A stretch of 50,708 nt of DNA from Candidatus Woesearchaeota archaeon (GCA_016203305.1 JACQMY010000039.1:1-50708); one strand, 5' to 3'; positions 2,345 to 50,708 are shown, counted from the stretch's first letter. A program made the numbers and translations. Notes: a model not told the origin generated them from the sequence alone.

Positions 2345-2447
2345 GCAATTAGCTATTGGCTGCTGGCTATTAGAAGGTAGTGGTAGGAAGAAGGACTAAG
2401 GCGGAAGGGCGAAGATAGACGTCTTCATCCTTCCACCCTATACCTTT
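2345..2447 (+). repeat. Degenerate 7-mer tract ending in a hairpin core
   Basis: gctattg gctgctg gctattag...gaagaag gactaag gcggaag ggcgaag, then atagacgtcttcatccttccacc. Confidence 0.75.
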
Positions 2448-2456
2448 ATAATCTAT

Positions 2457-2891
2457 TCATCGCAACGGAAGCCCTGAACTCGTAGCAGCACCATAGACAT
2501 ACTTATCACGAGGCAATCTGTACACCGGAGCGAGAACATCCTGATTATTGCCACCAGGCAAACAACACCACTGCTGCTTGTCCTCAAACCACAAGCACGG
2601 ATCAGGCCCATCAGAAGACGGGCCACAAACCAACTTATCCTTATTCGCAACGACCTTACCTTGCATACGCTGAACGAACAAATCATGCTCGTTCACAGAC
2701 GCAAGACGATCAGCACGCTGCTGAGCTCGCTTCAACCCAGGGCCATACAACTTGCCACCAGTGCCATAAGCCATCCAAGCACCATACGCCTGGCCGGTAA
2801 CCGAAGGGTCACCAACAGCAACAAACGTTGCAAAAGCCGAAATCACGACAATGCCAACAATCATAAAAACTACAAATTTTTCCATAGTCAT
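2457..2891 (-). CDS. Single-pass surface protein, Cys-rich C-terminus
   Basis: N-terminal TM, TG motif, KLYGPGLK motif, C..C..CC. Confidence 0.7.
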   Translation of the reverse strand: MTMEKFVVFMIVGIVVISAFATFVAVGDPSVTGQAYGAWMAYGTGGKLYGPGLKRAQQRADRLASVNEHDLFVQRMQGKVVANKDKLVCGPSSDGPDPCLWFEDKQQWCCLPGGNNQDVLAPVYRLPRDKYVYGAATSSGLPLR

Positions 2892-3367
2892 CACCTGCAA
2901 TTACCGTTATAACACTTCTGACCCTTCAAACACGCACGCGTCACCCAACCAAAACCAGATGACGTCCTCTCACAAACCATACGAACACCCTTCATACAAA
3001 CCTTCGAACCAGCCTTCTTAATATTCCAACGATCAATCCTACAACCACCACTACACATCAAATCAACAGAACAATCAGGATCATCACAATCAACCTTTTT
3101 ATCAAAATCATCATCAACACCATTCTGACAACGCTCCATAGACGTCGGACCAGGACCAGTCATACCCTTCGGCATAGCAGTACTCGGCCTGCCACCACCC
3201 TGCGGATCATAATGCCACTGAGGCTGGTTGCCAACAACAGTAGGAATAAACTGAGACGGCAAACCAACAGGAAACCCCTGCATGCCAGTCAAGGAAAGCT
3301 CACCAAGAACGGCAACCAACGAAATAACAACAATTCCCAAAATTGACAAAACAGCAAAACGTTCCAT
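2891..3367 (-). CDS. Single-pass Cys-rich surface protein with CxNGxDDDxDxxxDCxDxDC Ca-binding motif
   Basis: ATG 3367 with AGGTG SD; TM helix; motif CQNGVDDDFDKKVDCDDPDC. Confidence 0.7.
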   Translation of the reverse strand: MERFAVLSILGIVVISLVAVLGELSLTGMQGFPVGLPSQFIPTVVGNQPQWHYDPQGGGRPSTAMPKGMTGPGPTSMERCQNGVDDDFDKKVDCDDPDCSVDLMCSGGCRIDRWNIKKAGSKVCMKGVRMVCERTSSGFGWVTRACLKGQKCYNGNCR

Positions 3368-3430
3368 GAGCACCTTTTTTAACAAACATACACCGGAGAG
3401 TATATAAATATTACGAGAAGCAAACGCACC

Positions 3431-4482: not shown

Positions 4483-4566
4483 TGCGGCGGACAGGATTCG
4501 AACCTGCGAAGGCACTAAGCCGCTGGAGTCTAAATCCAGCCCGTTTGACCGCTTCGGTACCGCCGC
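4483..4566 (-). tRNA. tRNA-Leu(TAG)
   Basis: GCGGCGGTACCGAAGCGGTCAAACGGG-CTGGA-TTTAGAC-TCCAG...GCAGGTTCGAATCCTGTCCGCCGCA. Confidence 0.95.
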
Positions 4567-6508: not shown

Positions 6509-8201
6509 CGTAATTCTCATACTGGTCGCATTCGTCCTCTTACGAGTAATTCCTGCAACCTTCTCATATTATGCAGACGAACACAAATGGGCACTCATCG
6601 TCGATCCAGCAGAAGGAATGCTAGGAAAAATCCCACACCCTCCACTTGGAGAAATAATCATGCACTACGGCGGAGTATTGACGGGCTATACAACTCTAAG
6701 ATTTGTGCCACTCTTCTTTTCAGTACTAGATGCAATTCTAGTCTTTTTCATACTCAGAAGGTACGCAGGAACATCCGCAGCAATCAGCGGACTAATTGCT
6801 CTGACGCTAAGCATGTATTCCGTGCTTGCCTCAACAATGCTTGACACAGACGGAGCAATAATGCCCTTCTTCTTTTTGCTTGGAGCGTACGCTTACTTCA
6901 GATATGAAGAGAAAAAACAAACTTCCTGGCTTGTTTTGTCAGCTGCAAGCGCGGCGGCAGGAACACTCATCAAGCTGCCATTTGTTTTATTCTACCCAAC
7001 ACTCGCACTGCACGTATTCTCAAAGAATACATTACGCAAAACAATCAAAAACCTCGCAATCTACGCAGGAATCACCATTGCAGCAGCAGCAATTATTCTT
7101 CCACTCCTCAGAGTGATTTATCCTCATTTCAACCTACGCTACGCCTTTGGCTACGGATCATCATTCCCCCTATTGAACATTTTAAGCAGAGACTACTTCC
7201 ACACAATGCTACTGCTCGCAATCACACTCATTTACGTCTCACCCTTTATCGGACTTGTCGTATGGAGCATGTTCAACAAAACACCAAAAAAAACATTCCT
7301 GCTCAGCTGGATCGCAATAGCGCTCGCATTCTATCTGTTCATCGTGGACGTTAGCCACAGACCACTCGAACGCTACCTAATGACGATAATTTACCCGCTT
7401 GCAATACTAGCAGGAATTTTCATCAATAAAATTCTGCCTGCGCTGAAGAAAAACGCAGCATTCTTCGCACGCGCAACACTGCTTTTCCTACTGCCCGGCA
7501 TATTTCTCAACAGCATGCAAGCAGAAACGCTACCACTATACCCAAAAACAGCATACGTTGAACACATACTAACTGCAAACCTCCTGTTCTGGGTACCGCT
7601 AACAGGAGGATCAGGACCAATAGGATTCCAAGTCACCGCAGCATTCATCATCACATTTTTCTCGCTCGCATTTGCATTTATAATAATAGGATTGCTCAAC
7701 AAAAAACGTGCAACAACATTTTTCCTAATGTTCCTATCAATAACACTCGCATACAACCTAATACTAACAGAAGAGTTTGTGTTTTCAGCAATGTCACCAA
7801 ACGTCCAAGCAGTCGGAAAGCAAACACTAAATTCAGTGCTAACAAACCCCAACATCAAAAAAATCATAACATTCAACGACGCATTCGCATACGAACTAGT
7901 CAAATCAGGAAAATACGGAGGACGATTCTATGCAGTGCCTGAATACTTCGATGCAAACTTGGCAAAATTCGACAAACACAACGGAACATTCATGATAATA
8001 GACTACCCACAAATCAGCAGAGAAAGCAAATACTGGAAATATTTCACAACATGCAAAACAATGCAAACATTCAGCGACAAAAACAGCACGCTAGGCTACA
8101 TCCTCGACTGCGCTAAAACCCAAAACCCTTCCGCCGCTTCCGATGATACTTCCAACAAGCCCTCCACACGTACGGCGAAACAACAACCAAAAACACAATA
8201 A
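6492..8201 (+). CDS. GT-C fold (ArnT/PMT-like) membrane glycosyltransferase
   Basis: YADE and HPPL motifs in the first loop; many TM helices. Confidence 0.8.
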   Translation: MKKITSVILILVAFVLLRVIPATFSYYADEHKWALIVDPAEGMLGKIPHPPLGEIIMHYGGVLTGYTTLRFVPLFFSVLDAILVFFILRRYAGTSAAISGLIALTLSMYSVLASTMLDTDGAIMPFFFLLGAYAYFRYEEKKQTSWLVLSAASAAAGTLIKLPFVLFYPTLALHVFSKNTLRKTIKNLAIYAGITIAAAAIILPLLRVIYPHFNLRYAFGYGSSFPLLNILSRDYFHTMLLLAITLIYVSPFIGLVVWSMFNKTPKKTFLLSWIAIALAFYLFIVDVSHRPLERYLMTIIYPLAILAGIFINKILPALKKNAAFFARATLLFLLPGIFLNSMQAETLPLYPKTAYVEHILTANLLFWVPLTGGSGPIGFQVTAAFIITFFSLAFAFIIIGLLNKKRATTFFLMFLSITLAYNLILTEEFVFSAMSPNVQAVGKQTLNSVLTNPNIKKIITFNDAFAYELVKSGKYGGRFYAVPEYFDANLAKFDKHNGTFMIIDYPQISRESKYWKYFTTCKTMQTFSDKNSTLGYILDCAKTQNPSAASDDTSNKPSTRTAKQQPKTQ

Positions 8202-9330
8202 TCAAAACATACCAATACCACGCAACACCTGAATCCTCAGCAACATTCGAAACGACAGTTTCATTATCTTGTTGCGCTTCTAAACGCGATTCTGATTGCT
8301 CAACCTTCACAACATCTTCGTCACACCCGTCACCTAAACCATCAGCATCCAAATCAGGCCAACTGCCAGGCAAATTAGGACAATTATCCACAAAATCAGA
8401 AAAGTCATCACCATCAGAATCCTCTTCCTGCACAAACCTAATCACACGATCCAAAGAACCATCCTCGTTCAAGTCACCAACATCACCCTCAGAAGAAACA
8501 AAAACCAACATTCTGCCGAACAACGAAGGATTGCTGCCAGTAATGCCAAGTTTTGCAACAGAATTGTTTTCAGACAAACCAAACAATTGATCACCACGCT
8601 CGAAAACAACACCCTCATTTATTGAGGGATTGGACCCTGAAAAATTCGTTAACCGCAATGACTGCGATTTCACGTCCAACAATGCTATCTTGCCATCAGC
8701 GCTAAAAGCTATCACGCCTTGCTTTGACAAAGACAACCTATCTTTAGCTGCCACTCGCGCATTCGAAACCTGCCTAGACTCCCTATCCAAAATTCTTACC
8801 ACCTTGTCAGCCTTGTCACCATCAGCGTTTAAATCAACACCAACTTGCTCCTCCTCAGTCAAAAACGCAATATGACGCTGGCCAAGAACAGGAAAATCGC
8901 CAACCGCCTTCAAATTCGCCAGCTCCTGAGTCTTCAAATCATACAAGCGCAAAATGTCATCATCCAGGTCACCATCATTCGAAAAATCAACACCCAACTC
9001 CTGCTCCAAAGTCGAGAAAACAACAAACTCAGAAAACACAAACGGATTTCTACCCGCGCCAACAATCTTTACATTTTTATCACGCAAGCTTAAAACTTCA
9101 ACATTGCCACCATTCTCAAATGCAACAGTAAAACCGAAAATAGAAGGATTACTCCCCGGACCCAGACCACCCTCCTCACGCTTGGACAGGTCATAATAGC
9201 CAACATTACCCTCACGCTCAAACACAACAACATCACCATACAAAGAAGGATGATCGCCCTTAATGACAACAGGCTCAACAAACAAGCCAGAAACAGAAGA
9301 CGCCAACAACAACAGCACGAGCCAAAGCAT
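8113..9330 (-). CDS. Secreted, C-terminally anchored protein with beta-propeller-like repeats and thrombospondin type 3 repeats
   Basis: Signal peptide; repeated GSNPSI and DxNxDGDxxD; DSDGDD..DNCP..DADGLGDGCD; C-terminal TM with basic tail. Confidence 0.75.
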   Translation of the reverse strand: MLWLVLLLLASSVSGLFVEPVVIKGDHPSLYGDVVVFEREGNVGYYDLSKREEGGLGPGSNPSIFGFTVAFENGGNVEVLSLRDKNVKIVGAGRNPFVFSEFVVFSTLEQELGVDFSNDGDLDDDILRLYDLKTQELANLKAVGDFPVLGQRHIAFLTEEEQVGVDLNADGDKADKVVRILDRESRQVSNARVAAKDRLSLSKQGVIAFSADGKIALLDVKSQSLRLTNFSGSNPSINEGVVFERGDQLFGLSENNSVAKLGITGSNPSLFGRMLVFVSSEGDVGDLNEDGSLDRVIRFVQEEDSDGDDFSDFVDNCPNLPGSWPDLDADGLGDGCDEDVVKVEQSESRLEAQQDNETVVSNVAEDSGVAWYWYVLIIVFLVVVSPYVWRACWKYHRKRRKGFGF

Positions 9331-9370: not shown

Positions 9371-9405
9371 GTAACAGGACGCAGGATGAAGGCGGAAGGA
9401 TGAAG
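9371..9405 (+). repeat. Degenerate 7-mer tract
   Basis: gtaacag gacgcag gatgaag gcggaag gatgaag. Confidence 0.65.
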
Positions 9406-9415
9406 AAACTTCTAA

Positions 9416-10012
9416 CTACTTTATGGCAAGGATGTAAAAACCGCGCGTAACAGTACGCTTATGAGTTCTGAACAACCTATCTAAAAAGTACGCAACACCC
9501 CCAAAACGAACCAAGTACACTTGACCGGGCAAAAAATACAACATTGTTTCAAAATAGCCACCAGTCTTATGCAATTGAAGCTTTGAAAAATCGCTGAACA
9601 ACACACGCAAACCATCATCAAAAAATCTGAAATTATCAGGATAAAACCCCTTCCTGGCATGATACGGATAAACAGCAGGAACCCAACCAACAAAAACTCC
9701 GCCCTGCTTCAAAATGCGATGCATTTCCTGAACCGCCTTCTTCGGATCAGAAACATGCTCCAAAACACTCAGACACAACACGCCATCAGCACAACCATTC
9801 TCCAAAGGCAAATTATGAATATCACCAACAATATCCGGACCAAAACGCGCATCAACATCAACAGACTTCACAACAGAATCATCGAACCAAGACCTATACT
9901 TTGCCAACGACTTCTGAAAAGGAGAGCCACCACCAACATCATAAATAACCTTGCACTTGGAAAGGACATGCAAAGCATGCTCGAAAAAACCAACATAATC
10001 TCTCATACGCAT
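9416..10012 (-). CDS. Class I SAM-dependent methyltransferase
   Basis: YDVGGG, VGDIHNLP, SVLEHV, LKQGG. Confidence 0.85.
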   Translation of the reverse strand: MRMRDYVGFFEHALHVLSKCKVIYDVGGGSPFQKSLAKYRSWFDDSVVKSVDVDARFGPDIVGDIHNLPLENGCADGVLCLSVLEHVSDPKKAVQEMHRILKQGGVFVGWVPAVYPYHARKGFYPDNFRFFDDGLRVLFSDFSKLQLHKTGGYFETMLYFLPGQVYLVRFGGVAYFLDRLFRTHKRTVTRGFYILAIK

Positions 10013-10087
10013 CAGAAACCAACCGTGCATTAAAAAGTTTGCCACACGAACGAAAGCTTTTTAAACACCCCCTCTGGTCTCAAACCC

Positions 10088-13261: not shown

Positions 13262-15825
13262 CGCCAATCAAAGCAGATACAAAAGAAGTGAAACTGGACT
13301 GGGACAAACCAACATTTGGAAACATACCACTAACTGAAAACCAACGCAAAGTCATCAAAGACAAATACCTAAGAGACGACCCAAGCGTCGAATACTGGCT
13401 ATGGAACGTAGCAAAAAACATTGCACTCACAGAACTACTCTACCACCCAGATGTACCCCGCGACCAAATATTTGCAGGCGTACGATACACGCAAGAATGG
13501 GTTGAAGTAGGCAACGGAGAAACCAGCGAGCTAATCACAATTCACACAGGAGCCAAAAACCACGGCGACCAAGACCAAAACCACCACAGGTTCACCCAAA
13601 ACCTCTACAAACTACTCGAAAACAGCGCACGTGCAAGAGAAGTAGCACTAAAAGTAGCAAACCAGTTCTACGACATGCTGGCAAACTTCGACTTCCTGCC
13701 AAACAGCCCAACACTCATGAATGCAGGCAGAGAATTACAACAACTCAGCGCATGCTACGTCCTGCCAATAGAAGACTCCATCGAAGGCTGGGGAGACCTG
13801 GTCAAACACACCATGCTCATCCACAAAAGCGGAGGAGGAACAGGATTCAGCGGTTGCCGCGTACGACCAAAAGGAGACCGAGTAAAAAGCACAAAAGGAG
13901 TGGCATCAGGAGCGCTATCTCCTTTTTCAATCATAAACTACGCAACACAAGAAGTCAAACAAGGCGGAACCAGACGAGGAGCAAACATGGGAATCCTACC
14001 ATACTGGCACCCAGACGTGGTTGACTTCATAAAACACAAAGCAGAAGACGGAAAACTGGAAAACTTCAACATCTCAGTAGCAGTAGACAAAAAGTTCATG
14101 GAAGCAGTCAAGAAAGGAGAAGACTACGACCTTTTGAACCCGCGCACAAAAGAACCGATGGGAAAAGCAAACGCAAAAGAAGTCTTCAACATGATCTGTG
14201 ACTACGCATGGAAAACAGGCGATCCAGGAATGATATGGATAGACAACATCAACAACAGCCTATCCAACCCAACACCAAAAATCGGCCAAATAGAAAGCAC
14301 AAACCCCTGCGGAGAACAACCACTACTACCGTACGAGCCATGCAATCTAGGAAGCATCAACCTGTCAAAGTTCGTCGTAATGGGCAAAATCGACTATGCA
14401 CGACTAGGAGAAATAGTCAAGCTAAGCATAAGGTTCCTAGACAACGTAATCGACGTGAACAACTACCCACTGGCAGAAATCGAACACATCGCAAAAGGAA
14501 ACAGACGAATCGGCCTTGGAGTAATGGGCTGGGCGGAAGCGCTGGCATTACTAAACATACCATACGACAGTCCAGAAGCACTCGCAAAAGCAGAAGAGCT
14601 AATGGCATTTATCAACGAAAAAAGCCTCCAAGCAAGCGAAGAACTAGCATTGGAACGAGGAGTATTCCCCAACTACAAAGACAGCATCTATGACCCGAGC
14701 GGGCAGTACGCAAAAGAATGGGCAAAAGGAAGGCCACGCAACTGCGCACGAACAACAATCGCGCCAACAGGAACCATAGCGATCTGCGCAGGACTACAAG
14801 GTGGAGGAATCGAACCATTCTTCGGCATTGCATACACAAGATATAATGCCAAAGCCCTGGACATGCTCAAAAAAGGACAACAACCCGACGAAAAAGACGT
14901 CTTCCACGAAGTCAACCCAATATTCATGACAGTCGCGGAGAAAAACAACTTCTTTGGAATGCAACCGGTTGAGCTTTGGAAAAAAATAGAAGCAAACCAC
15001 AACTCAGTCAGAGGCGTCAAAGAAGTGCCAGAATCAATACAAAGGGCATTTGCAAGCGCACACGACGTAGCAGTAGACTACCACGTAAAACACCAAGCAG
15101 CATTCCAAAAATACACAGACAACGGCGTCAGCAAAACAATCAACCTGCCAAACAGCGCAAACGTGGAAGACATCAAGAAAACCTACCTGCTAGCATGGGA
15201 ACTGGGATGTAAAGGCATAACAGTCTACAGAGACGGGTGCAAGAGCCACCAAGTGCTCAACATCACCAAAAAAGAAGAAGTCAAAGCAAAACCAAAAATC
15301 GACCCATCAGAAGGAGTCGGCTCAGTGTATTACAAGCTCGACACAGGACACGGACCAATCCACATACACGTCGACCACCACAACGGAGAAATCATGAGAG
15401 TGTTCACCAACATAACACCTGTTGGAACAGAAATCTCAGGACTAACGTGCATCATGGGAATACTCATCTCCAAATACTTGGAAATGGGCGGAGACGTCAA
15501 CGACATAAGAAAACACTTGAACAGCATCAAAAGCGACAAGCCATACGGCTTCGGACCAAAAAGAGTGGAAAGCATCCCACACGCTGTCTCAATGGCGCTA
15601 AGCAAATTCCTGGCACAAACAGGCAACCTGCCAGGCCAACAATTGCTAAGCCCGCACGTCAGCACACCAGCACCAGAAGTCACAGCACAACTAAGCGTGA
15701 CAGTCAAACCAGAAGCACAAGACGACAAAAAGCACTGTCCAAAGTGTTACTCGCCAAATGTAGCCATGCTTTCTGGATGTTCTGGACCGACATGCTATGA
15801 ATGCGGGCATAGTGAGTGCAGTTAG
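13258..15825 (+). CDS. nrdJ: Adenosylcobalamin-dependent (class II) ribonucleotide reductase
   Basis: PNSPTLMNAG, QLSACYV, TNPCGEQPL, CNLGS, TIAPTGT, KGITVYRDG; C-terminal Zn ribbon; no intein seen. Confidence 0.95.
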   Translation: MTPIKADTKEVKLDWDKPTFGNIPLTENQRKVIKDKYLRDDPSVEYWLWNVAKNIALTELLYHPDVPRDQIFAGVRYTQEWVEVGNGETSELITIHTGAKNHGDQDQNHHRFTQNLYKLLENSARAREVALKVANQFYDMLANFDFLPNSPTLMNAGRELQQLSACYVLPIEDSIEGWGDLVKHTMLIHKSGGGTGFSGCRVRPKGDRVKSTKGVASGALSPFSIINYATQEVKQGGTRRGANMGILPYWHPDVVDFIKHKAEDGKLENFNISVAVDKKFMEAVKKGEDYDLLNPRTKEPMGKANAKEVFNMICDYAWKTGDPGMIWIDNINNSLSNPTPKIGQIESTNPCGEQPLLPYEPCNLGSINLSKFVVMGKIDYARLGEIVKLSIRFLDNVIDVNNYPLAEIEHIAKGNRRIGLGVMGWAEALALLNIPYDSPEALAKAEELMAFINEKSLQASEELALERGVFPNYKDSIYDPSGQYAKEWAKGRPRNCARTTIAPTGTIAICAGLQGGGIEPFFGIAYTRYNAKALDMLKKGQQPDEKDVFHEVNPIFMTVAEKNNFFGMQPVELWKKIEANHNSVRGVKEVPESIQRAFASAHDVAVDYHVKHQAAFQKYTDNGVSKTINLPNSANVEDIKKTYLLAWELGCKGITVYRDGCKSHQVLNITKKEEVKAKPKIDPSEGVGSVYYKLDTGHGPIHIHVDHHNGEIMRVFTNITPVGTEISGLTCIMGILISKYLEMGGDVNDIRKHLNSIKSDKPYGFGPKRVESIPHAVSMALSKFLAQTGNLPGQQLLSPHVSTPAPEVTAQLSVTVKPEAQDDKKHCPKCYSPNVAMLSGCSGPTCYECGHSECS

Positions 15826-15880
15826 GCAGTGGGTATTGGGCGTTAGGTTGTAGGCAGCAGGGCAAAGAACTGCAAGAGAT
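15822..15880 (+). repeat. Degenerate 7-mer tract
   Basis: ttag gcagtgg gtattgg gcgttag gttgtag gcagcag ggcaaag. Confidence 0.75.
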
Positions 15881-15915
15881 AGATTTTTATTTTCACTTCT
15901 GATTTTCTTCTCTCA

Positions 15916-16302
15916 ATGAAAACAAAAACGATCCAAAAAGCAGTGCTCAAAAAAGGCGAAAAATACCTTATCCTGCTGCGCTCAAAACAAGCACGATTCT
16001 ATCCTGAACACTGGGACTTCCCCGGAGGTAATCTCGAAGAAAAAGAACACCCCCTTCACGGCGTTGAACGGGAGGTATTCGAAGAAACAGGCCTCAAAGT
16101 CAAGGCTCTGAAACCAGTTACCGCCTTCGATGAATACGAAAACAACACCCGCTACCATTTCATCACGTACTCAACCACCATACTCTCTGGCGAGTTCCAA
16201 TTAAGTTCCGAACACACCGCGTTCAGATGGGCAACAAAAGATGAAATCCTTTCCCTTCAAATCGAGCCCTTCATTGCAGCATATTTTAAGAAAAACCCTT
16301 AG
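15916..16302 (+). CDS. Nudix hydrolase
   Basis: WDFPGG...REVFEETGL Nudix box. Confidence 0.9.
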   Translation: MKTKTIQKAVLKKGEKYLILLRSKQARFYPEHWDFPGGNLEEKEHPLHGVEREVFEETGLKVKALKPVTAFDEYENNTRYHFITYSTTILSGEFQLSSEHTAFRWATKDEILSLQIEPFIAAYFKKNP

Positions 16303-16651
16303 CCCTTCCACCATTCAATCCTTAGCTCTGGAAAAATTTCTTGCACGTATTTGAAATCCTTATCTTTAGTCACAACAACAGCAGAACGGTTCAAACACAT
16401 CGCCGCGATCAAAACATCAATTGTCCAATCATCGTTCCTCTCTTAAGAAGGTGAGCAGCAATCTCAACTGCTCTTGCAAAATCACCCGTGACAGGAAAGA
16501 GTACATCAAAATCACGATCCTTACAGGGTGGATACTCAATCGCGGTAAACACAGTTATTACTCCGCTCTTCGCATGAACCGCTACGGATGTATCAAGTAT
16601 CTTGCCCGCTTCTTGTCCTTCTCCCGTATCTTCTTCGTAAACTCTATCCAT
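16299..16651 (-). pseudogene. vapC: VapC/PIN toxin, frameshifted near 16425
   Basis: ILDTS..TAIEYP; continues in another frame as IDVLIAAMCLN..VVTKDKDF..* to 16299. Confidence 0.75.
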
Positions 16652-16851: not shown

Positions 16852-16947
16852 ACATATTGTACATAACTGACATATTTGAATACTTTTCCTATTCGCGCGC
16901 GTACTCTTCAAACTTGTACGTTCTCAGGATACCTAGCTCGTGGTCAA

Positions 16948-17363: not shown

Positions 17364-17425
17364 CGAGAACACTGAGCTTGCCCGCTATATTAAACTTTCT
17401 TGAGCTCGAGTTATGTCTTTAACTC

Positions 17426-17920: not shown

Positions 17921-17954
17921 AAATCGTAATAAATCGAGTTTCTATTTAAAATTA

Positions 17955-38148: not shown

Positions 38149-39015
38149 ATGCACCATCTAAGTAAATACACCTGGATTTTTGTCATCACAGCAATACTGC
38201 TCGGATTTGTTTGGCCAACACCGGGCATCCTGATCAAACCAGCTGTCAGCATACTTCTAATCGGCCTAATGACCCTTTCATTCATCAAAATAAAAACCGC
38301 GGACATTATAAGGGCATTCACACACGCACGGATTTACATCATAGTTCTCATCACGCTTTTGATCACACCGCTCCTTGCCTTTCTTGCAAAACCCTTTCTC
38401 GCGCCTGAAATCTTTGCCGGCCTCATCATCGCCACAGCAGTGCCTGCAGGAGTTTCTGTTGTGTTCATCTGCACACTCTGCCATGGAAAACCAGTGGATG
38501 CACTTAACATTACAGCCCTAAGCCACATAATCAGTACAATCACGCTGCCTCTCTTAATCTGGCTCGCAGGACAGGAAGCACACATACAACCGAGCACGCT
38601 TCTCTTTGTACTGATAAAATTCATTTTCTTGCCACTGATACTTGCACAAGTGGTAAGCCCCGTTATAGAACAACGCAAAGCGCTAAACTTCACACTCTCA
38701 ACTCTGCTACTCATCGCAATCATATGGGCAATAATCGCACCCACTCGAGCATTCATCATGGCATATCCTGCCCAAACAGTCACCGTCCTACTGATCAGCG
38801 GGACATGCATGCTTCTTCCATTCGCTCTTGGCTGGATAATTGGGAGGAGCCCTAGTGAAAAAATCACCTACTCAATTGCGGCAAGCTACAAGAACTACGC
38901 ACTTGCAACTGTAATCGCATACAGCTTGCTGGGCGAGATAGGAACACTCGCGCCAATCGCATACACCATTCTCAACAACATACTTTTCGCAATCGTTCAA
39001 GAACGTTTTGGCTGA
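38149..39015 (+). CDS. Bile acid:sodium symporter family transporter
   Basis: Many TMs; PAGVS and YKNYALA motifs. Confidence 0.85.
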   Translation: MHHLSKYTWIFVITAILLGFVWPTPGILIKPAVSILLIGLMTLSFIKIKTADIIRAFTHARIYIIVLITLLITPLLAFLAKPFLAPEIFAGLIIATAVPAGVSVVFICTLCHGKPVDALNITALSHIISTITLPLLIWLAGQEAHIQPSTLLFVLIKFIFLPLILAQVVSPVIEQRKALNFTLSTLLLIAIIWAIIAPTRAFIMAYPAQTVTVLLISGTCMLLPFALGWIIGRSPSEKITYSIAASYKNYALATVIAYSLLGEIGTLAPIAYTILNNILFAIVQERFG

Positions 39016-39674
39016 ACGCGCAGAGATTTGCCCTCAGCAACGAACAATGCATGAAACTCGTTAAACAAAGCAGACCGTTCTTCGTTATTCGTAATTCGTT
39101 GTTCGAATTCGCCATAAAACAAACCCTGCAGTTCATGATAATCAACATCAGCAGAACAAATATCCAGATTACTACAAATTCGTTTGGTGTAAGCATCAAC
39201 AACAAAAACAGGACGTCTCCCAGCATAGAGCAACATGCTATCAGCAGTCTCAGGACCAACACCCCACAAAGAAAGAAGCTCTTCTCGAATTTCGTTTGTA
39301 ACACGCAGCCTGTCGAATAACTTGCTCATTGAACCATGCTTTTTCAGGACATACTGCGCGAACAACTTGAGCTTTTTCGCTTTTTGACGGAAATAACCAC
39401 TGCTCCTTATCAAAGAAGCAAGCCTTCGCTGATTAACACCAGAGAGCTTTTCTAAATCAACCAAACCAGCACCAAATAATGCATCAAGCGCCTTTTCAAC
39501 ATTCTTCCAGCTCGTATTCTGAGTCAAGACAGCACCGATGCAAATCTCCAACAGCTCTTCTTCAGACAACATCCGAGAACCATTCGAAGAATGGTAACCA
39601 AACTGCCTTGTAGGCCACCAACCCTGCGGGCCATGCCTGCGCAACAAAACACCATACAATTGAATGAGTTTCAT
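38997..39674 (-). CDS. Endonuclease III-related HhH-GPD protein
   Basis: GPQGWWP, GAVLTQNTSWKNV, GVGPETADSMLLY, VVDAYTKR. Confidence 0.9.
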   Translation of the reverse strand: MKLIQLYGVLLRRHGPQGWWPTRQFGYHSSNGSRMLSEEELLEICIGAVLTQNTSWKNVEKALDALFGAGLVDLEKLSGVNQRRLASLIRSSGYFRQKAKKLKLFAQYVLKKHGSMSKLFDRLRVTNEIREELLSLWGVGPETADSMLLYAGRRPVFVVDAYTKRICSNLDICSADVDYHELQGLFYGEFEQRITNNEERSALFNEFHALFVAEGKSLRVQPKRS

Positions 39675-40756
39675 CTTAACGATTTCAGCACTTTGTCTAA
39701 CGCTTTGGAAGTAACAGTCCAATCAAACTCCTTCCGAACCTTCTGCTGCAACAATTTCGCCATTCTTTTTGCCTTAACAGGATTTTTCAACACCCAGTTA
39801 ATCCGTTCACGCAAAGCAAGAACGTCCTTTGGTTTGATCAAAAAACCAGTCTTATCATCAATGATCTCGCGCGTGCCGCCAACATCTGTTGCTATCACTG
39901 GAACACCAACAGCACCCGCCTCCAAAACAGAAGTCGGCAAACCCTCAGCATAAGAAGGATTCACAAAAACATCCGAATAAGAAAGAACCTTCCTAATGCC
40001 AGCAGAATCCTGCTCGCCCAAGAAAACAACATTCCTGCCAGCAGCCGATCTAAGCTCACGCGCATAATTACCACTGCCAATAATGAGAACTTTCACGTTC
40101 TCCATTTCAGCAGTTGCTTCCACTAAATCCTGAACACCCTTCGCCTCAATCAAACGGCCAACAAATGAAATAACTTTTTGCCTGTACGGCTTGGTTGTTT
40201 TTACCGGCTTGAAGAATGAGGAATCAATCGCATTATGCAAAACAATAGTCTTGCGCTTACACAAATGTCTTGCAAACTTAGCAGAAGCATCACTAACACC
40301 CGCGACCGCACGTGCACGATGCACAACAAAATAGCCAATCGTATGATCATACAACCAGTTCACAGCGTAGACGAATGGCTTGCTGCCTGTGTGCATAGTC
40401 CCATGCTCGATATGCAAATGCGGAATCTTGTTTTTCCTGGCAAACCGAGCACCAACAAAAGACAACGTGAAGAAACGCGTATGCGTTATGACCGCATCAT
40501 AAGTTCCCAAAGTTTGCAAGAATTTGAAAACGCCAGGCAGGACAACAGGATAAGTTCCACCCAACGCATTCCAAGTTGGAACGCGAAAAACATGCATGCC
40601 ACGATAGGATTCCTTTTCTTTCATGCCACGAAGCAAAGCAGTAACAACATCAACCTTCCAACCATGCTTCACCAAACGAACACCAGTTTCTTCAGCATAC
40701 TTTTCCACGCCGCCACGATGCGGCCAAAAATACGGAGCGAAAATCAAGATTTTCAT
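39671..40756 (-). CDS. GT4 glycosyltransferase
   Basis: GGVE, FVGRL..KG, PSYAEGLPTSVLEA. Confidence 0.92.
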   Translation of the reverse strand: MKILIFAPYFWPHRGGVEKYAEETGVRLVKHGWKVDVVTALLRGMKEKESYRGMHVFRVPTWNALGGTYPVVLPGVFKFLQTLGTYDAVITHTRFFTLSFVGARFARKNKIPHLHIEHGTMHTGSKPFVYAVNWLYDHTIGYFVVHRARAVAGVSDASAKFARHLCKRKTIVLHNAIDSSFFKPVKTTKPYRQKVISFVGRLIEAKGVQDLVEATAEMENVKVLIIGSGNYARELRSAAGRNVVFLGEQDSAGIRKVLSYSDVFVNPSYAEGLPTSVLEAGAVGVPVIATDVGGTREIIDDKTGFLIKPKDVLALRERINWVLKNPVKAKRMAKLLQQKVRKEFDWTVTSKALDKVLKSLR

Positions 40757-41962: not shown

Positions 41963-42769
41963 ATGCGTCTGCACGCACCAAATTTCAACCTTACACACAC
42001 CCTGGACAGCGGACAATTCTTCAGATACGACAAGATAGGAGAATGGTATTACTGCCAAGAAAGGGATGTTTTGTTCAAAATAAAGCAAAATTCAGATTGG
42101 CTAGAGTTTGAAGGAACAACAGAAGAACACGTAAAACGCCTCTTTGGACTACAGTGCGATTACGAACAAATCATAAAAGAACTCTCTAAAGACAAAACGC
42201 TCCTGCCCGCAATCAAAAAATACAAAGGACTCCGCGTGATGCAAAGAGACCCATGGGAAACCCTCGTAAGCTTTCAATGCAGCATAATGAGCAATATCAA
42301 AAAAATAAAGTTAAACATGAGCTGCCTTGCAAAAGAGTTTGGAACTCCAATCAAGCTTGATAAATATGCATCGCACACTTTTCCAAAACCAGGAATGCTG
42401 CATGACTTGGAAAAAATCAAAAGGTGCGCAACAGGATTCAGAGCAAAATACATACACCAAGCAAACAGCCTAGTTGATGACGAATACTTTGAAAAATTAA
42501 GAACGAAAAAATATGCTGAAGCACACGAACAACTAATGGAACTCCCAGGAGTAGCCGAAAAAGTCGCAGACTGCATCTGCATATTCGCACTCTGCAAAAC
42601 AGAAGCATTCCCAGTAGACGTCTGGATTGAACGAATCATGAAACAAACCTATCCAGAAACAAAAAAAATGAAAAACAAACAAATACGACAGTTTGCGTCT
42701 GACAGATGGGGAAAAAATGCAGGATATGCGCAGCAGTTCTTATATCACTATGCGAGGCACAACACATGA
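41963..42769 (+). CDS. ogg1: 8-oxoguanine DNA glycosylase (OGG1 type)
   Basis: TLDSGQFFR, QRDPWETLVSF, GFRAKYI, GVAEKVADC, FPVDVW, AGYAQQFL. Confidence 0.9.
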   Translation: MRLHAPNFNLTHTLDSGQFFRYDKIGEWYYCQERDVLFKIKQNSDWLEFEGTTEEHVKRLFGLQCDYEQIIKELSKDKTLLPAIKKYKGLRVMQRDPWETLVSFQCSIMSNIKKIKLNMSCLAKEFGTPIKLDKYASHTFPKPGMLHDLEKIKRCATGFRAKYIHQANSLVDDEYFEKLRTKKYAEAHEQLMELPGVAEKVADCICIFALCKTEAFPVDVWIERIMKQTYPETKKMKNKQIRQFASDRWGKNAGYAQQFLYHYARHNT

Positions 42770-43134: not shown

Positions 43135-43592
43135 ACAATGTTAAAATCAAACAAACCAACAAAGGCAAAGGAATTTTTGCAGCATATGAACTGCAAAAAG
43201 AAACAAAGATTCTAAAATTTGAACGCAACTTTGTCACCCTGCCAAATACTGTGACCTTGCGCATTGATGAACACAAACACCAATTGAGCACAAATCCCCA
43301 CTCAGCTGAAAACTACATCAACCACGCCTGCGATCCCAATGCGTACATTGACTTCAACGACCTAAGTCTTCGCGCACTAAGAAAAATCAAGCTAGAAGAA
43401 GAAATCACCTACAACTACTTCACCAGCGATTGGGACAACGAAGACCCATTCGACTGCAAATGTGGATCTCCATGTTGCAAAAAGCTAATTAATGGATTCA
43501 AGCACCTCTCTCTCACTGAAAAGAAAAAACTTGCGCCACTCCTCTCGCCATTCCTAAAGAAAAAACTTGGAGAGGAACTCACACTCCTATGA
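43131..43592 (+). CDS. SET-domain protein with post-SET
   Basis: KGKGIFA, YINHACDPN, EEITYNY, CKCGSPCC. Confidence 0.92.
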   Translation: MNNVKIKQTNKGKGIFAAYELQKETKILKFERNFVTLPNTVTLRIDEHKHQLSTNPHSAENYINHACDPNAYIDFNDLSLRALRKIKLEEEITYNYFTSDWDNEDPFDCKCGSPCCKKLINGFKHLSLTEKKKLAPLLSPFLKKKLGEELTLL

Positions 43593-44242
43593 CACCAACA
43601 CATGACCAAATTGATCGAGTACTAAACATCCTGGTAAAGGAAGAAGGCAGCGCGACAATGCTCGGCAGAATGGGAAAAAAATACGAGCCATTCAAAGTCT
43701 TAATTTCAACCATACTTTCTGCGCGCGCAAAAGACGAAGTAACTGAGGTAGTCGCAGAAAAGCTGTTTGAAAAATATGACACAGCGGAAAAACTTGCCAA
43801 TGCTGACAAGAGAGAAGTGATCAGAATAATAAGAAAAATAGGATTCTACAACGCAAAAAGCAAAAACGTAATCAACACGGCAAAAATGCTTCTAGAAAAG
43901 TTCAACGGAAAAGTGCCAGACAAGCTAGAACAATTGATAGAACTCCCAGGCGTTGGAAGAAAAGTAGCAAACTGCGTTCTCGTCTACGCGTACAAACAAG
44001 ACGCGATACCAACTGACACCCATGTCCACAGAATAAGCAACAGACTAGGATGGGTGAAAACAAAACAACCAGAAGAAACAGAACAAGCACTCGAAAAACT
44101 CGTCCCAAAAAAACACTGGCAGCTCATCAATGACACCTTTGTAACACACGGCAAAACAATTTGCGTTCCAATCTCCCCATTCTGCAGCAAGTGCCCAATC
44201 TACAGATATTGTCAAAAGCAAGAGGTAACAAAAAGTAGATAA
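43589..44242 (+). CDS. nth: Endonuclease III
   Basis: LISTILSA, LPGVGRKVAN, DTHVHRI, C-x6-C-x2-C-x5-C FeS motif. Confidence 0.95.
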   Translation: MTPTHDQIDRVLNILVKEEGSATMLGRMGKKYEPFKVLISTILSARAKDEVTEVVAEKLFEKYDTAEKLANADKREVIRIIRKIGFYNAKSKNVINTAKMLLEKFNGKVPDKLEQLIELPGVGRKVANCVLVYAYKQDAIPTDTHVHRISNRLGWVKTKQPEETEQALEKLVPKKHWQLINDTFVTHGKTICVPISPFCSKCPIYRYCQKQEVTKSR

Positions 44243-44265
44243 ACACGTTGAACGCAAGGAGGAAC

Positions 44266-44661
44266 ATGGGGAATATAGTCAAAGTTGCAGTCCTGCCAAT
44301 AGTTGATAAAAGAGTTCTAATGTGCCGCAAACTAGGAGTTGACGCGCTCATCAACCTTGGCGGAAAAGTGGAAAATGAAGAAACTGATGAACAGTGCGCA
44401 GAACGAGAAACTCTGGAAGAAGCACAGTGTGGAGTAAAGGATCTTGTCCATTACACCACTGTCACAGCGCCGAGAGTCGATGAACCAAGCTCAACAATAG
44501 AACTCCGCTGTTATTTTGGCCAACTGGATGGAACACCCAAACCAAGAGAAGGTGACAAGATAATAGGCTTTGAATACATCGACAGAACATACAATGCTAG
44601 CAAACTTCCGCCGGCAATGCGAAAAGTCTTTGAGAAACTGGTATCAGACGGGCACCTCTAG
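44266..44661 (+). CDS. Nudix hydrolase (MutT-like)
   Basis: GGKVENEETDEQCAERETLEE; AGGAGG SD. Confidence 0.85.
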   Translation: MGNIVKVAVLPIVDKRVLMCRKLGVDALINLGGKVENEETDEQCAERETLEEAQCGVKDLVHYTTVTAPRVDEPSSTIELRCYFGQLDGTPKPREGDKIIGFEYIDRTYNASKLPPAMRKVFEKLVSDGHL

Positions 44662-44792: not shown

Positions 44793-45362
44793 ATGGTCAA
44801 CATGATCAAAATTGTGATTGCTGCAATAGTGCTGCTTACCATAATAGGCTATGCCCTGCTTGGCAAAAACGTCAAACGTGCCATAATCTTCAGAAGCGCG
44901 AAAACAAAAGCTTCAGAAAGTCTCGTCCTAGAAGTTGTAACTGGAATAATAACACTAGCAACAGCGCTCGCATATTATTTGCGCAACCGGCCAGAAGCAA
45001 CCTGGTGGATGGGAGCAGGCATTGTTCTACTTATCCTGGGAGGCATTGTACAACTCATTGCCCGCAAACACCTCTACGAAGACAAAACCTTCGAACACAG
45101 ACTACTGAGCGAGTTCAGCGCAGCACAAACAGGCATATACCGAAAACTCCGCTACCCAGGCAAAACAAGCACCCTGCTACTAACACTCGGATTCTGCCTA
45201 GCAATGGGAAGCACGTGGAGCATCGCAGTATGGGCAGCACTATTCCTACCGAGCACTCTCTACCGCATTAGTCAAGAAGAACAAACACTCCAAGACAAGT
45301 TCGGAGAACGATGGATGAACTACCAAGAAGAAAGCAAAAGAATAATCCCAGGAATATTCTAG
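44793..45362 (+). CDS. ICMT/PEMT-family membrane methyltransferase
   Basis: TGIYRKLRYP, EEQTL..KFG..Y....RIIPGIF. Confidence 0.8.
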   Translation: MVNMIKIVIAAIVLLTIIGYALLGKNVKRAIIFRSAKTKASESLVLEVVTGIITLATALAYYLRNRPEATWWMGAGIVLLILGGIVQLIARKHLYEDKTFEHRLLSEFSAAQTGIYRKLRYPGKTSTLLLTLGFCLAMGSTWSIAVWAALFLPSTLYRISQEEQTLQDKFGERWMNYQEESKRIIPGIF

Positions 45363-45439
45363 GCTTTAGGTTGTGGGGTGTAGGTATTAGGGCGAAGGCG
45401 GAAGGACGAAGGTTGTAGGTGTTAGGTTGTAGGACGAAG
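45363..45439 (+). repeat. Degenerate 7-mer tract (11 units)
   Basis: gctttag gttgtgg ggtgtag gtattag ggcgaag gcggaag gacgaag gttgtag gtgttag gttgtag gacgaag. Confidence 0.85.
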
Positions 45440-45486
45440 AACACTTGACCAAAACATATATAAACACACTTTCTTGCAACAAAAAC

Positions 45487-47502: not shown

Positions 47503-47578
47503 GGTACAACGATCCAGATAACGATTTAAAAAACTATTGCTTGTATCTTCTAATGAAATGCTTCAAAGACTTGACATG

Positions 47579-47747
47579 TCGGAATGCCACCAGTCTGATA
47601 TGACTGGTGGTTTTGCTTGCGCAAACCACAATAGGGTGGCATTCCGAGCATGCTCAAGAACCACCGCTATTTTCTATGAGCACTTATAGTGCCCATCATG
47701 CCACCGGTGTTGAGCGAGCGCAGCGAGCGATCACCGGTGGTTCTTGA
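47579..47747 (-). mobile_element. Two-hairpin REP/MITE-like element, copy 2 (inverted)
   Basis: TCGGAATGCCACC..GGTGGCATTCCGA-GCATGC-TCAAGAACCACCG..CGGTGGTTCTTGA. Confidence 0.7.
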
Positions 47748-47804
47748 CATTTTGAACATGCCGTATTTTTTCCCATGCTGCCGAGCATATTCACGCTGCC
47801 CTCT

Positions 47805-50708
47805 TCATTTACTAGGATGTTTAGAACTTTGTCTATTCCTGCGTGGCTTACCATTCCACATAAAAAGTTGAGCGGGCCTTCCAGTGGTATTAGTTCTAGC
47901 CGTTGCGTGTTTCCCAGAATGAACCCTTTTGAACTTCAGCGTAGCTAGCAAGACAAGCACTGCAAAAACAAGTCCAACAGACCGCACATTCCCCAACCAA
48001 TCGCGAAACACCCAAACAGGATTTGCAGAAGACCCCTGCGCATCCCTTTCTTTCATGGCAGCAACAATTGACTCCTGACGGTTGGCTATTGGCTGTCGGA
48101 CATTGGCTATTGGTGGTTGGCTAGTAGCTATTGGCTGCTTGCCAGTAGTTGGTAGTGGGTAGTTTGTAGTTTGTGAAAGCTTTGCCAAAGCCAAAGACAC
48201 CTGCCTGTTGAAAACAACCAACACCTGAACACGCAAGTCAGAAACACCATCACCAGACACATCAACATCCTTAGACTGACCAGCAGACAACACAAACTCC
48301 TGCAGAACACTCTGAACGCTCAACAACACACGATCATACTCAACGTCCAAAACAGTCAACAAGTGCGCCCCCCCATTAACATCAAAAATCACACTATCCA
48401 ACTCGCCCAAATAAGGAGTAACAAAAGCATCAGACGTCATTACAAACTCTCTACCAACCTGAACCGGAGCAGACACTATAGGACGTGACGCACCACCACC
48501 GCCACCCCCTCCAGAAGGAACCCCTGGAGTTGGCGGAACAACAGCAACATTAACCACCGTAAGCTCAGAAACAACAACAGAACCATTGCCACCAGACAAG
48601 TTCTGGAACGAAACGTTCACAGAGTTGTTTAACGTTCCGCTTGCGCCTGCACTCACGTTCACAGTGATGTTGACAGTCGTGCTACTGCCTGAAGAAAGAT
48701 TGCCCAAGAACCAAGTATTGTTGCCAACACTGGGAACAGGCTGAGAATTGTTGAACACCACACTACTTGGATACAATTCAACCAAAGTAACGTTGAATGC
48801 AGTCTCGCTGCCTGTGTTGTTGATCGTGACAGTGTAAGATAATGCAGAACCATTATTCACAGGATCAGGACTATCCGACTTAGACACGCTAATCGTAACA
48901 TTACCCAACTCACCAGCAGCATAACTCGTGAAGCTAGAAACGTTAAAGACATACACGCCGCCAGTAAAGCTCACCTCAACACACTGCGGAGGATTACACT
49001 GTTCAAACACGCCGTCATCGTTGAAATCAACACGCGGACGAGGGTCGGTGAAAGACAAACCACGCAATGTGATCTGAGCAGACGTGTTCAGGAAGGACAA
49101 GTTGGTGCTGTTCACAAAAGTATTATTGCTGCTGACGTTGAACTTTGCACGAGTTATACTGTGAGCTCCCGACATGGTGAAATTGCCGAAAAATAGACTG
49201 CCATTACGAGTGAAAAAAGTCGTGCTGTTAAATTCTGCCAAAGTATTGACGCCTGTAGAAGCCCAAACAGGCGCGACAACATCCAGCAGACCAATCTGAA
49301 GAACACTCAAGTTCATCACAGTCTCAACCAAAGTCAAACCACTCGAGTTACCAAGATAAGTCAATGTGCTATTGACAATGCGAGCATTAGTAACACCCTG
49401 CGCATACAAACTATGCACCTCCCCTGTCCCATTTGTCCGAACAATAATATTGGAAAGAGTAATCGCTGTTGCATTGGTAAGATTAATCCCAAGAGTCTGG
49501 CTACCAGAAACATTAACCGTAACATTCCTCAAAACAAAGTTAGTACCATTTTGAACTGTAATACCCGCGGCAAAAGGCCCATCAACAACCATTTGTATCG
49601 CACCCCCAAACCCATCACTGGCAGTATCAACAACCGAGAAAATCCACGCCCGCCAGTTTGATCCACTACCTGACAAAAGAACATTATTGTTCCCAAACAC
49701 TACACTAGTCGTGTTGCTAAACTCGACACCAGTATGGTTGCCAGAACTAGAAATCCCAGTGATATTCAACGTCATATTGCCAACAGTCACATTGCTCACA
49801 TTACGCACCAGAACACCAGTGCTCGCGCCATTCCCAGTCAAATTTATAGTGTTGTTATTGATAAAAACGTTCAAAGAATTGTTGACAACAAACCCGCGCA
49901 CGTTCTCACCAACAATCCCCCACATGGTGTTACCAAACGCTTGATTATCACTGCCCGAATCATCCCCATAAACATCCGCATTCACTTTGAGCAAGCTGCC
50001 ACCATCCATCGTATTACCACTGACAACAGAATCAGTGACGAACAACAATCTAATCCATCGCGCCCTATTGGTAGCAGAAGGATTATTGAACGTATTTAAC
50101 TGAACTGTCGGACCAGTGCTATTGACGACCTCCAACCCAGTATACAAGTTCAACGCAGTTCCAAACACAGTATTATTCGCTATCACAATCACTCCAGAAG
50201 AATTGATGAGAATTCCCATAACTGTCCCATCTGAACCGTTAGCAACCAAAATAATGCTCATATTTGTAATGCTGACATTCGTGCTATTGAAAACCTGCAT
50301 TCCAGTCGTAACATTCGACGCGTTCGCCTGAACAGTCGTATTCGTAATAACACTGTTCGACACGTTTGACACATTGATGCCTATCCCGAAATTACCATCT
50401 GTCGAGTTATCGATTACAACGCAGTTGCGAACAGTAACATTTGTACGACTAACTGCAAGTATCCCATACGTCCCATCCCCACCATCCTCATTCCAACGCA
50501 CAGCGAAACCGCCACAGTCAAGCACAACATTACTCGCAAGAATGTTGATCGCAGTAGAAGGACAAGTGATATTCTCAGTCAAAATCGTATCAGAAGCAAT
50601 ACTTAGCGGACAGTCTTCAACAATCAACACATTATTACTCAAAACAGTACTACCATCACTCGCATTCCGATTATCATTAGGAGTAACAGCAACAGACCAA
50701 TTATCACC
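47805..50708 (-). CDS. Large surface glycoprotein (parallel beta-helix, DUF11/Ig-like domain, Gly linker, C-terminal TM); 5' end lies outside the window
   Basis: Frame open to the window edge (GDNWSVAVTPND); many N-x-S/T sequons; KSDSPDPV..LSYTVTINNTG; GGGGGG linker; TM. Confidence 0.85.
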   Translation of the reverse strand, partial: GDNWSVAVTPNDNRNASDGSTVLSNNVLIVEDCPLSIASDTILTENITCPSTAINILASNVVLDCGGFAVRWNEDGGDGTYGILAVSRTNVTVRNCVVIDNSTDGNFGIGINVSNVSNSVITNTTVQANASNVTTGMQVFNSTNVSITNMSIILVANGSDGTVMGILINSSGVIVIANNTVFGTALNLYTGLEVVNSTGPTVQLNTFNNPSATNRARWIRLLFVTDSVVSGNTMDGGSLLKVNADVYGDDSGSDNQAFGNTMWGIVGENVRGFVVNNSLNVFINNNTINLTGNGASTGVLVRNVSNVTVGNMTLNITGISSSGNHTGVEFSNTTSVVFGNNNVLLSGSGSNWRAWIFSVVDTASDGFGGAIQMVVDGPFAAGITVQNGTNFVLRNVTVNVSGSQTLGINLTNATAITLSNIIVRTNGTGEVHSLYAQGVTNARIVNSTLTYLGNSSGLTLVETVMNLSVLQIGLLDVVAPVWASTGVNTLAEFNSTTFFTRNGSLFFGNFTMSGAHSITRAKFNVSSNNTFVNSTNLSFLNTSAQITLRGLSFTDPRPRVDFNDDGVFEQCNPPQCVEVSFTGGVYVFNVSSFTSYAAGELGNVTISVSKSDSPDPVNNGSALSYTVTINNTGSETAFNVTLVELYPSSVVFNNSQPVPSVGNNTWFLGNLSSGSSTTVNITVNVSAGASGTLNNSVNVSFQNLSGGNGSVVVSELTVVNVAVVPPTPGVPSGGGGGGGASRPIVSAPVQVGREFVMTSDAFVTPYLGELDSVIFDVNGGAHLLTVLDVEYDRVLLSVQSVLQEFVLSAGQSKDVDVSGDGVSDLRVQVLVVFNRQVSLALAKLSQTTNYPLPTTGKQPIATSQPPIANVRQPIANRQESIVAAMKERDAQGSSANPVWVFRDWLGNVRSVGLVFAVLVLLATLKFKRVHSGKHATARTNTTGRPAQLFMWNGKPRRNRQSSKHPSK

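Follow-up and report, generated by a model that had tools for sequence, protein, structure and literature searches.

The 50,708-nucleotide stretch analysed here (the window) comprises all of contig C22 of the Candidatus Woesearchaeota archaeon genome G000 (1,132,746 bases, 40 contigs, rated 100% complete), and it carries phased arrays of degenerate heptamers. These arrays are part of a genome-wide satellite made of the same seven-nucleotide words that bracket, as inverted arms, a TIGR02436/PF05635 four-helix-bundle gene of this genome, and their G-rich face (G-face) lies almost always on the A/C-rich strand, whatever the direction of the neighbouring genes. In the reading that we favour, and to which we give about even chances, the satellite is derived from the gene cassette and its arrays lengthen in one orientation only relative to replication. 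The relatives compared were 40 genomes, including two congeners, each 88% complete, of which G001 is one. The 1156 genes of G000 were called with strand-specific codon models of our own, which are crude. The window carries archaeal genes (GINS51, aIF2-alpha, PAC2 and diphthamide synthase), and the public runs that hold it are groundwater metagenomes, with no RNA run among those listed.

The original prediction had placed phased heptamer tracts, G-rich on a + strand that is otherwise A/C-rich, at 2345, 9371, 15822, 22040, 27665, 28483, 45363 and 48080 of the window. All eight were confirmed, and the A/C richness of the + strand held throughout. The pattern (GGNNKWA)x4 with at most one mismatch had 18 matches in the window, all on the + strand, against 0.00 expected from 100 dinucleotide-preserving shuffles; the tandem-repeat (TRF) rows showed 62-92% matches. 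The predicted gene contexts were borne out as well: the arrays at 2345 and 9371 lay between - genes, those at 15822, 22040 and 45363 after + genes, that at 27665 in a convergent gap and that at 28483 in a divergent gap. A second word (GGCTATT-like) was also present in the tracts at 2345, 22040 and 48080, and a third (GTAGTTG-like) at 48145. The tracts at 2345 and 27665 ended in a short inverted arm showing the C-rich face (C-face), which formed a weak hairpin and had been absent from the original prediction; the hairpin element at 2416-2446 lay directly downstream of the - gene 2457-2900. The Rfam scan of the window returned only a tRNA at 4483-4566, and no heptamer array matched any Rfam family. 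The arrays and their inverted arms were located as follows.

2344-2415, + strand: array between two - genes, with GGCTATT-type units first and then AGG-type units; it adjoins the start codon (2341-2343) of a - strand open reading frame (ORF)
2416-2446, + strand: loop (TAGACG) and conserved inverted four-unit C-face arm, forming a weak hairpin with the array end (-9.8 kcal/mol, z -1.6)
9377-9407, + strand: short array of about 4 units between the - genes 8113-9330 and 9416-10045
15822-15862, + strand: array beginning in the stop codon of the + ribonucleotide reductase gene, ahead of a T-run
22035-22118, + strand: array beginning at the stop codon of the + cobalamin adenosyltransferase gene, with AGG-type and GGCTATT-type units mixed
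27665-27719, + strand: degenerate G-face array after the + enolase gene, in a convergent gap
27720-27752, + strand: loop and conserved inverted C-face arm, reaching to the stop codon (27753) of the - histidine phosphatase gene; -8.3 kcal/mol, z -1.2
28483-28620, + strand: array of about 19 units, longer than any other in the window, separating the divergent - gene 27753-28451 and + NDK gene (28625)
45362-45440, + strand: array of 11 units directly after the stop codon of the + PEMT-like gene, ahead of the TATA-like box of the next + gene
48080-48175, + strand: array of the second and third words (GGCTATT-like, GTAGTTG-like) inside a - strand DUF11 surface-protein ORF

The last of these arrays, read in frame, encodes a 32-residue linker (TTNYPLPTTGKQPIATSQPPIANVRQPIANRQ) within a 945-residue surface protein (window 47805-50642, - strand). 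The linker joins the DUF11/beta-helix ectodomain to a C-terminal hydrophobic (membrane) helix.

Over the whole of G000, 1814 units gave the consensus G-G-N-N-(G>T)-(T/A)-A, dominated by about a dozen units (GGTATTA, GGATGAA, GGACGAA, GGTTGTA, GGAAGAA, GGCGGAA and others). After merging, the genome held 232 arrays totalling 11.9 kb, each its own shuffle of these units. Adjacent identical units were avoided: they made up 9 of 1233 pairs, versus 67 ± 8 when units were shuffled genome-wide and 52 ± 6 when they were shuffled within runs. Unit identity at lag 3 was enriched (52 of 781, versus 42 ± 6 and 33 ± 5 in the two shuffle controls). The original prediction held that simple slippage would not produce such varied units, and the roughly seven-fold depletion of identical neighbours agrees; single-unit slippage does not explain the arrays and was rejected on this ground. 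A master-copy (MITE-like) model was rejected because no five-unit word was seen more than twice among 290 runs.

The arrays were also placed and built asymmetrically. Where the left neighbour was a + gene, the array started at a median of 6 nt past the stop codon (at most 15 nt in 55 of 79 cases), and where it was a - gene, 50-63 nt were left free beside the start of that gene. Uninterrupted runs on the A/C-rich strand reached 17 units, and 111 had at least 6 units. On the G/T-rich strand, 22 runs had exactly 4 units (0.2 expected by shuffling), one had 5, and none was longer. The 24 discordant pieces were one conserved four-unit arm (TTCAYCC TTCCRCC TTATACC TTCAACC), sitting 6-10 nt after a long concordant array and often followed by a second word (TCAATTAGCTATTGG...).

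The orientation of the arrays followed the composition of the strand and not the genes. Each contig of G000 was G/T-rich or A/C-rich on a given strand, with GC and AT skews opposite in sign in 40/40. The G-face lay on the locally C-rich strand in 226 of 249 tracts of at least 4 units, with skew taken from the 10-kb flanks and the tract itself excluded; in 38 of 38 tract-bearing contigs, the majority tract orientation was concordant with the skew. After merging, 208 arrays were concordant (11,211 bp; median 49 nt, maximum 166 nt) and 24 discordant (732 bp). Concordant arrays occupied every type of gap to a similar extent (++ 51/206, -- 53/238, divergent 39/149, convergent 28/91; 22-31%), and 26 lay inside called ORFs. 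The direction of adjacent genes was therefore ignored, and the independence from transcription that had been proposed for the window extends to the whole genome. The called genes themselves numbered 530 on the A/C-rich strand and 626 (54%) on the G/T-rich strand. In letters of the A/C-rich strand, third-codon skew was GC3 -0.41 and AT3 +0.64 for the genes of that strand, and GC3 -0.38 and AT3 +0.57 for those of the other. As the sign was the same for genes of either strand, the asymmetry belongs to the DNA strand and not to the coding strand. We must also note how extreme this gene-independent skew is, with third-codon AT of about +0.6 and GC of about -0.4, in flip-free contigs over 1.13 Mb.

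One intact TIGR02436/PF05635 gene was found in G000, at C9:15040-15354 (125.9 bits, cut-off 24). It is bracketed by inverted heptamer arms, GGAAGAA GGTAGAA GGGTGAA upstream and, as reverse complement, GGGTGAA GGCGGAA GGACGAA GGCAGAA downstream, and all of these units belong to the dispersed vocabulary of the genome. The other copy, on C19, is frameshifted and has AGTNTGT/ACANACT on either side; this word was dispersed more rarely (22 to 9) and is present at window 48145. In G001, the four-helix-bundle gene sits at the locus orthologous to the broken copy of G000 and is bracketed by TCAGNNN. The dispersed word switches with it: TCAGNNNx4 had 53 matches in G001, 0 in G000 and 0 in G002. The TCAGNNN arrays of G001 (820,525 bases) obey the same strand rule: in 41 of the 44, it is the A/C-rich strand that carries the T/G-rich face, and two of the three exceptions adjoin a cassette or another array. 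The PF05635 homologue of G002 (a 182-residue open frame) had no heptamer arms. The only PF05635 matches of G000 were on C9 and C19, with none in the contig of the window, and the great majority of arrays were solitary or had a 6-10-nt loop, i.e. they were not arms beside a gene. The original prediction had named TIGR02436 as an analogy absent from the window. The absence was correct, but the family is more than an analogy, since the G000 gene is flanked by the same heptamer. Likewise, of the two kinds of co-occurring genes that had been suggested, the four-helix-bundle gene carries the same word, whereas the reverse transcriptases proved unlinked. A separate observation concerns G001 C16:5015-5095, a perfect (TCAGTGG)n array of about 13 units, in which identical neighbours are tolerated, unlike in G000.

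The association of this gene with heptamer arms is widespread. Among 79 homologous loci of other genomes (mostly Bacteroidota), phased arrays were present on both sides in 57, upstream only in 4 and downstream only in 15. A protein tree (FastTree, 81 proteins, 63 tips labelled by arm core) required 6 label changes, versus 21.3 ± 0.8 (minimum 18) in 1000 shuffles, and in one genome with two paralogues, each fell in the clade of its own arm word. The solved relatives of the four-helix-bundle protein, 2gsc (XCC0516, E 2.5e-18) and 2rld, were each deposited with five chains. The C9 protein scored 24.7 bits on the Avd model (cut-off 80). In the accessible part of a review, PF05635 is described as resembling Avd, a protein of diversity-generating retroelements (PMC10053308). 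We found no paper linking the TIGR02436 family to dispersed heptamer arrays, nor one on strand polarity of heptamer arrays in archaea. To our knowledge, this very large family has no known function outside diversity-generating retroelements. The genome G011 was used only for the PF05635 tally and for one weak-skew sample.

The heptamer satellite of G000 is species-specific. The five-unit pattern had 371 matches in G000 and 0 in the 40 relatives, and the reversed-pattern control gave 0. Window 1-47502 has a collinear counterpart in contig C6 of the congener G001, about 72% identical and of the same skew sign, and the heptamer arrays are missing from the orthologous gaps of C6. After the ribonucleotide reductase stop codon, G001 runs straight into the T-run, whereas about 40 nt of heptamers come in between in G000. 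Downstream of the PEMT-like gene, a TATA-like box follows in G001 and 78 nt of array in G000.

We infer that the strand asymmetry followed by the arrays is replicative. Skew signs of G000 and G001 agreed in 133 alignments and disagreed in 16; contig C1 of G001 (145,572 bases) had skew opposite to its G000 orthologues (on contigs C11, C13, C20, C26 and C27) in 12 of 13 alignments, and the other contigs agreed. Skew therefore depends on position or direction and not on the genes themselves. Within this block of opposite skew, the arrays in G000 and G001 each follow the local skew. Compared with G000, C1 looks like a large inversion or a changed replication direction with later re-equilibration of skew. 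The leading strand is canonically the G/T-rich one. The coding of the ribosomal-protein operon (L14), RNA polymerase A' and 54% of the genes on the G/T-rich strand fits this assignment. Strong skew is not shared by all relatives: when the initial 8 kb were sampled in 20 contigs belonging to 10 relatives, it was confined to some genera, and the complete relative G040 had no G/T versus A/C skew at the 20 sites sampled. We also observed a segment of reversed skew of about 3.5 kb (C2:79000-82300), with a 597-residue - strand ORF and two + strand ORFs, in an otherwise uniform contig. There was no small-subunit or large-subunit rRNA match in the G000 assembly, so the segment is not rRNA; a recent inversion or acquisition could account for it.

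The main orc1/cdc6 genes were located at the following positions. They lie at contig ends in G000, G001 and G017, within about 530 nt of the end in these three assemblies.

G000 C40:194-1282: orc1/cdc6 gene
G001 C8:62450-63535: orc1/cdc6 gene
G017 C10:527-1612: orc1/cdc6 gene
G013 C21:24408-25496: orc1/cdc6 gene
G018 C1:9813-10904: orc1/cdc6 gene

In the mechanism that we propose, the satellite would derive from the inverted heptamer arms bracketing the TIGR02436/PF05635 (Avd-like) gene, whose protein presumably recognises the word. Short seeds of a four-unit arm plus hairpin would land between genes, as a rule just past a stop codon and upstream of the terminator or of the following promoter. 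An arm would then grow only when its G/T-rich face is on the A/C-rich strand, the opposite arm staying at four units. The A/C-rich strand would correspond to the lagging-strand sequence (nascent Okazaki strand, leading-strand template). Instead of slippage by single units, growth would come from duplications spanning several units and from exchange between arrays. The arrays probably have no dedicated role in the cell and would be non-coding filler that is transcribed in the 3' untranslated region (3' UTR) of + genes. Mutation bias should erode G/T-rich arrays on an A/C-rich strand, so their abundance would imply recent or continuing generation, or selection.

Several results weigh against this mechanism. 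There was no skew flip inside any of the 40 contigs of G000 or in 820 kb of G001, skew did not flip at the internal orc1 genes of G013 and G018, and no clear flip was seen near orc1 of G019. By synteny, the start of G000 C5 adjoins the start of C40 with no flip, which suggests that there is none at the orc1 of G000 either. A replicative origin of the asymmetry is thus unproven, and the active origin may lie elsewhere than at orc1. Of the replication-strand-linked system put forward in the original prediction, the lock to the compositional strand stands, but polarity could not be tied to replichores. The structural footing is also missing. Solitary arrays were unstructured as DNA (-0.6 and -0.1 kcal/mol, less than shuffles), and no quadruplex was predicted in three arrays (ViennaRNA, quadruplex model). 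The earlier suggestion of G-rich single-stranded DNA structures, whether quadruplexes or hairpin-prone strands, is accordingly not supported, and with it goes the usual basis for orientation-dependent repeat expansion. No variation in unit number was seen at the arrays at 15822, 22040 and 27665, which were crossed without gaps by the contigs of three DNA runs, although contigs hide rare variants. The runs belong to a single groundwater study, and two of them may be the source of the assembly. The joints listed in that comparison were cross-matches to other arrays, and the public contigs of all three runs break within the array 28483-28620 (at 28574). A vocabulary of about 12 units shuffled over 200 sites is not obviously derived from duplication and mutation. 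Finally, the gene is inherited with its linked arms and relatives share labels, so the tree result speaks for linkage and not for binding.

It is also possible, if improbable, that the arrays are written by a fork-coupled process guided by a pentameric Avd-like protein, possibly with the orphan reverse transcriptases, that adds units with free middle positions to one nascent strand, or that C-containing pyrimidine tracts on a C-poor template are preferred sites of Okazaki priming or protein loading. If arrays are written, each species would mark its lagging-strand sequence with its own word. A related alternative, which we consider unlikely, is that the arrays are selected polar sites, i.e. 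strand-oriented sites of binding or initiation for a process on the scale of the chromosome (a KOPS/Chi-like guide, loading of the four-helix-bundle pentamer, or preferred Okazaki priming at pyrimidine tracts that contain C, on a presumed lagging-strand template poor in C), with selection and not mutation keeping the orientation. The near-absolute polarity in two species with unrelated words, the conserved GG core and final A around a free middle, as in a degenerate protein site, and the abundance of arrays under an eroding mutation pressure would all be expected of such sites, and avoidance of identical neighbours would stabilise them against slippage. Nevertheless, arrays occurred in 0 of 40 relatives and the gaps of the congener were empty, and an essential function with a swapped word in a sister species is unlikely. 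The arrays are also spaced irregularly along G000, with many gaps devoid of them. KOPS and Chi have their G-rich face on the strand opposite to that of the heptamer arrays, which further counts against such a guide.

Orientation could otherwise be fixed on entry, if pre-formed single-stranded heptamer DNA (reverse-transcriptase cDNA made with the Avd-like protein, or an excised arm) were joined at the fork in the manner of an Okazaki fragment or of a single-stranded IS200/IS605-type element. We give this little credence. It would account for a polarity that follows the strand and not the genes, and single-stranded DNA transposons are said to show a replication-linked orientation bias (Ton-Hoang et al. 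2010). G000 has two reverse transcriptases (C16:14261-14881 and C34:12011-12628, 397 and 355 residues) besides the Avd-like protein, and the variable middle positions recall error-prone templated synthesis. However, both enzymes fall below every curated NCBIfam cut-off (the best was a group II intron model, about 161 bits versus a cut-off of 300), and they lie on other contigs than the four-helix-bundle genes, with no arrays within 1.5 kb; a physical link to them or to a diversity-generating retroelement was rejected. A Y1 transposase link was rejected too, since the only Y1_Tnp gene (C4:15478-15837, 100.9 bits on the IS200 model) has G+C-rich hairpins of its own on its flanks and no heptamers. 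The arrays are, moreover, not copies of a master sequence, and the hairpin elements keep both arms with one extended, which argues for growth in place over one-shot insertion. Action at the RNA level is more doubtful still; the arrays would then serve as stabilisers of the 3' UTR, as terminators or as Shine-Dalgarno-like decoys (AGGA/AGGU), and the four-helix-bundle protein might bind them. Arrays that begin right after + gene stops and ahead of T-runs would indeed lie in the 3' UTR, the G-face as RNA folds moderately via G-U pairs (-12 kcal/mol for 78 nt), and the accessible part of one report describes related cassettes inside rRNA as processed stems (PMC4990558). Yet about half of the arrays would be antisense or untranscribed, as expected if flanking-gene direction is ignored, some lie in divergent gaps upstream of both promoters (window 28483), and the Rfam scan offered no family for them. 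That they are ordinary simple-sequence repeats made by slippage, with polarity a by-product of skewed composition, is very improbable. The genome is compositionally extreme, and heptamer repeats are a known over-represented class in prokaryotes, as far as the accessible text of two reports goes (PMC4692102, PMC4679880). But the arrays are G/T-rich on the A/C-rich strand, the opposite of composition; shuffled windows yielded no matches, identical neighbours were depleted, and the word is that of the arms of a specific cassette, with which it switches between congeners.

The arrays share features with several known systems. With the cassette arms of TIGR02436/PF05635 (23S rRNA intervening-sequence protein family, Avd-like), they have in common the 7-nt period, a conserved 3-4-nt core with a variable rest, and inverted arms of about four units. 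They differ in that more than 200 G000 arrays are solitary, far from the gene, up to 17 or more units long and on one compositional strand, in an archaeal host. The GGGAATC repeats of Xanthomonas and the GGGGAYT repeats of Nostoc, as described in the accessible part of Rehm et al. 2015 (PMC4692102), are likewise intergenic and dispersed, sometimes in inverted pairs, nearer the 5' neighbouring ORF and occasionally inside ORFs. There they are near-perfect and G-quadruplex-forming, and the GGGAATC repeats are reported to have no leading/lagging-strand preference. In the G000 arrays, by contrast, neighbouring units differ, units carry GG, no quadruplex was predicted, and polarity is near-absolute. 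The G001 word TCAGTTA, read on the opposite strand, is TAACTGA, the repeat described from Beggiatoaceae, Microcystis and Bacteroidetes (MacGregor 2015, PMC4679880). According to the accessible part of that paper, the TAACTGA repeats, like the congener heptamers, form intergenic sets that are apparently species-specific or horizontally spread. They mostly point toward a downstream start codon, that part reports no four-helix-bundle link or genome-strand rule, and the author left a same-orientation subset in Microcystis as an open question.

The STRR heptamers of heterocystous cyanobacteria are also tandem, dispersed, intergenic and of unknown function, but their words differ from those of G000, and the host here is an archaeon. 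In triplet repeats (CTG/CAG in E. coli), instability reportedly depends on orientation relative to replication (Kang et al. 1995). Expansion in one orientation would similarly give one long and one short arm, as in G000; that effect, however, rests on a hairpin of one strand, whereas the G000 arrays are predicted to be unstructured as DNA and their units are not identical.

The polarity against skew and gene direction genome-wide, the same rule for the different word of the congener, the word switch with the cassette and the avoidance of identical neighbours are new. Heptamer repeats (STRR, Xanthomonas, Nostoc, TAACTGA) have been catalogued for decades without explanation, and G000 ties heptamers to PF05635/TIGR02436 in an archaeon. 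The clean strand rule, lacking in the best-studied bacterial case, makes it testable whether growth or survival of arrays depends on the direction of a genome-wide strand-asymmetric process. With its extreme, transcription-independent skew, this lineage is a natural system for reading replication direction from sequence, and the G000 arrays offer a way to ask how repeats expand without slippage of identical units.

Some further observations concern gene content. The IS200-type gene C4:15478-15837 has the hairpin GCGGGCTTTAGCCCGC followed by ...CGAGTTG on both sides. About 5.7 kb of G000 (window 15825-21505, with a NUDIX gene, an AsnC-type regulator, a 728-residue ORF and others) are missing from G001 C6:17633-17703, where the flanking genes are the same. 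The NDK gene (28625-29161) is likewise missing from the gap of the congener. Base-damage repair and nucleotide sanitation are represented in the window by a cluster of two HhH-GPD glycosylase genes, one gene with an OGG_N domain (8-oxoguanine glycosylase N-terminal) and three genes for NUDIX hydrolases, which deserves attention given the mutational strand bias of the genome.

38997-39722, 41963-42769 and 43589-44242 (window): HhH-GPD or OGG_N-domain genes
15916-16302, 29173-29925 and 44248-44661 (window): NUDIX hydrolase genes

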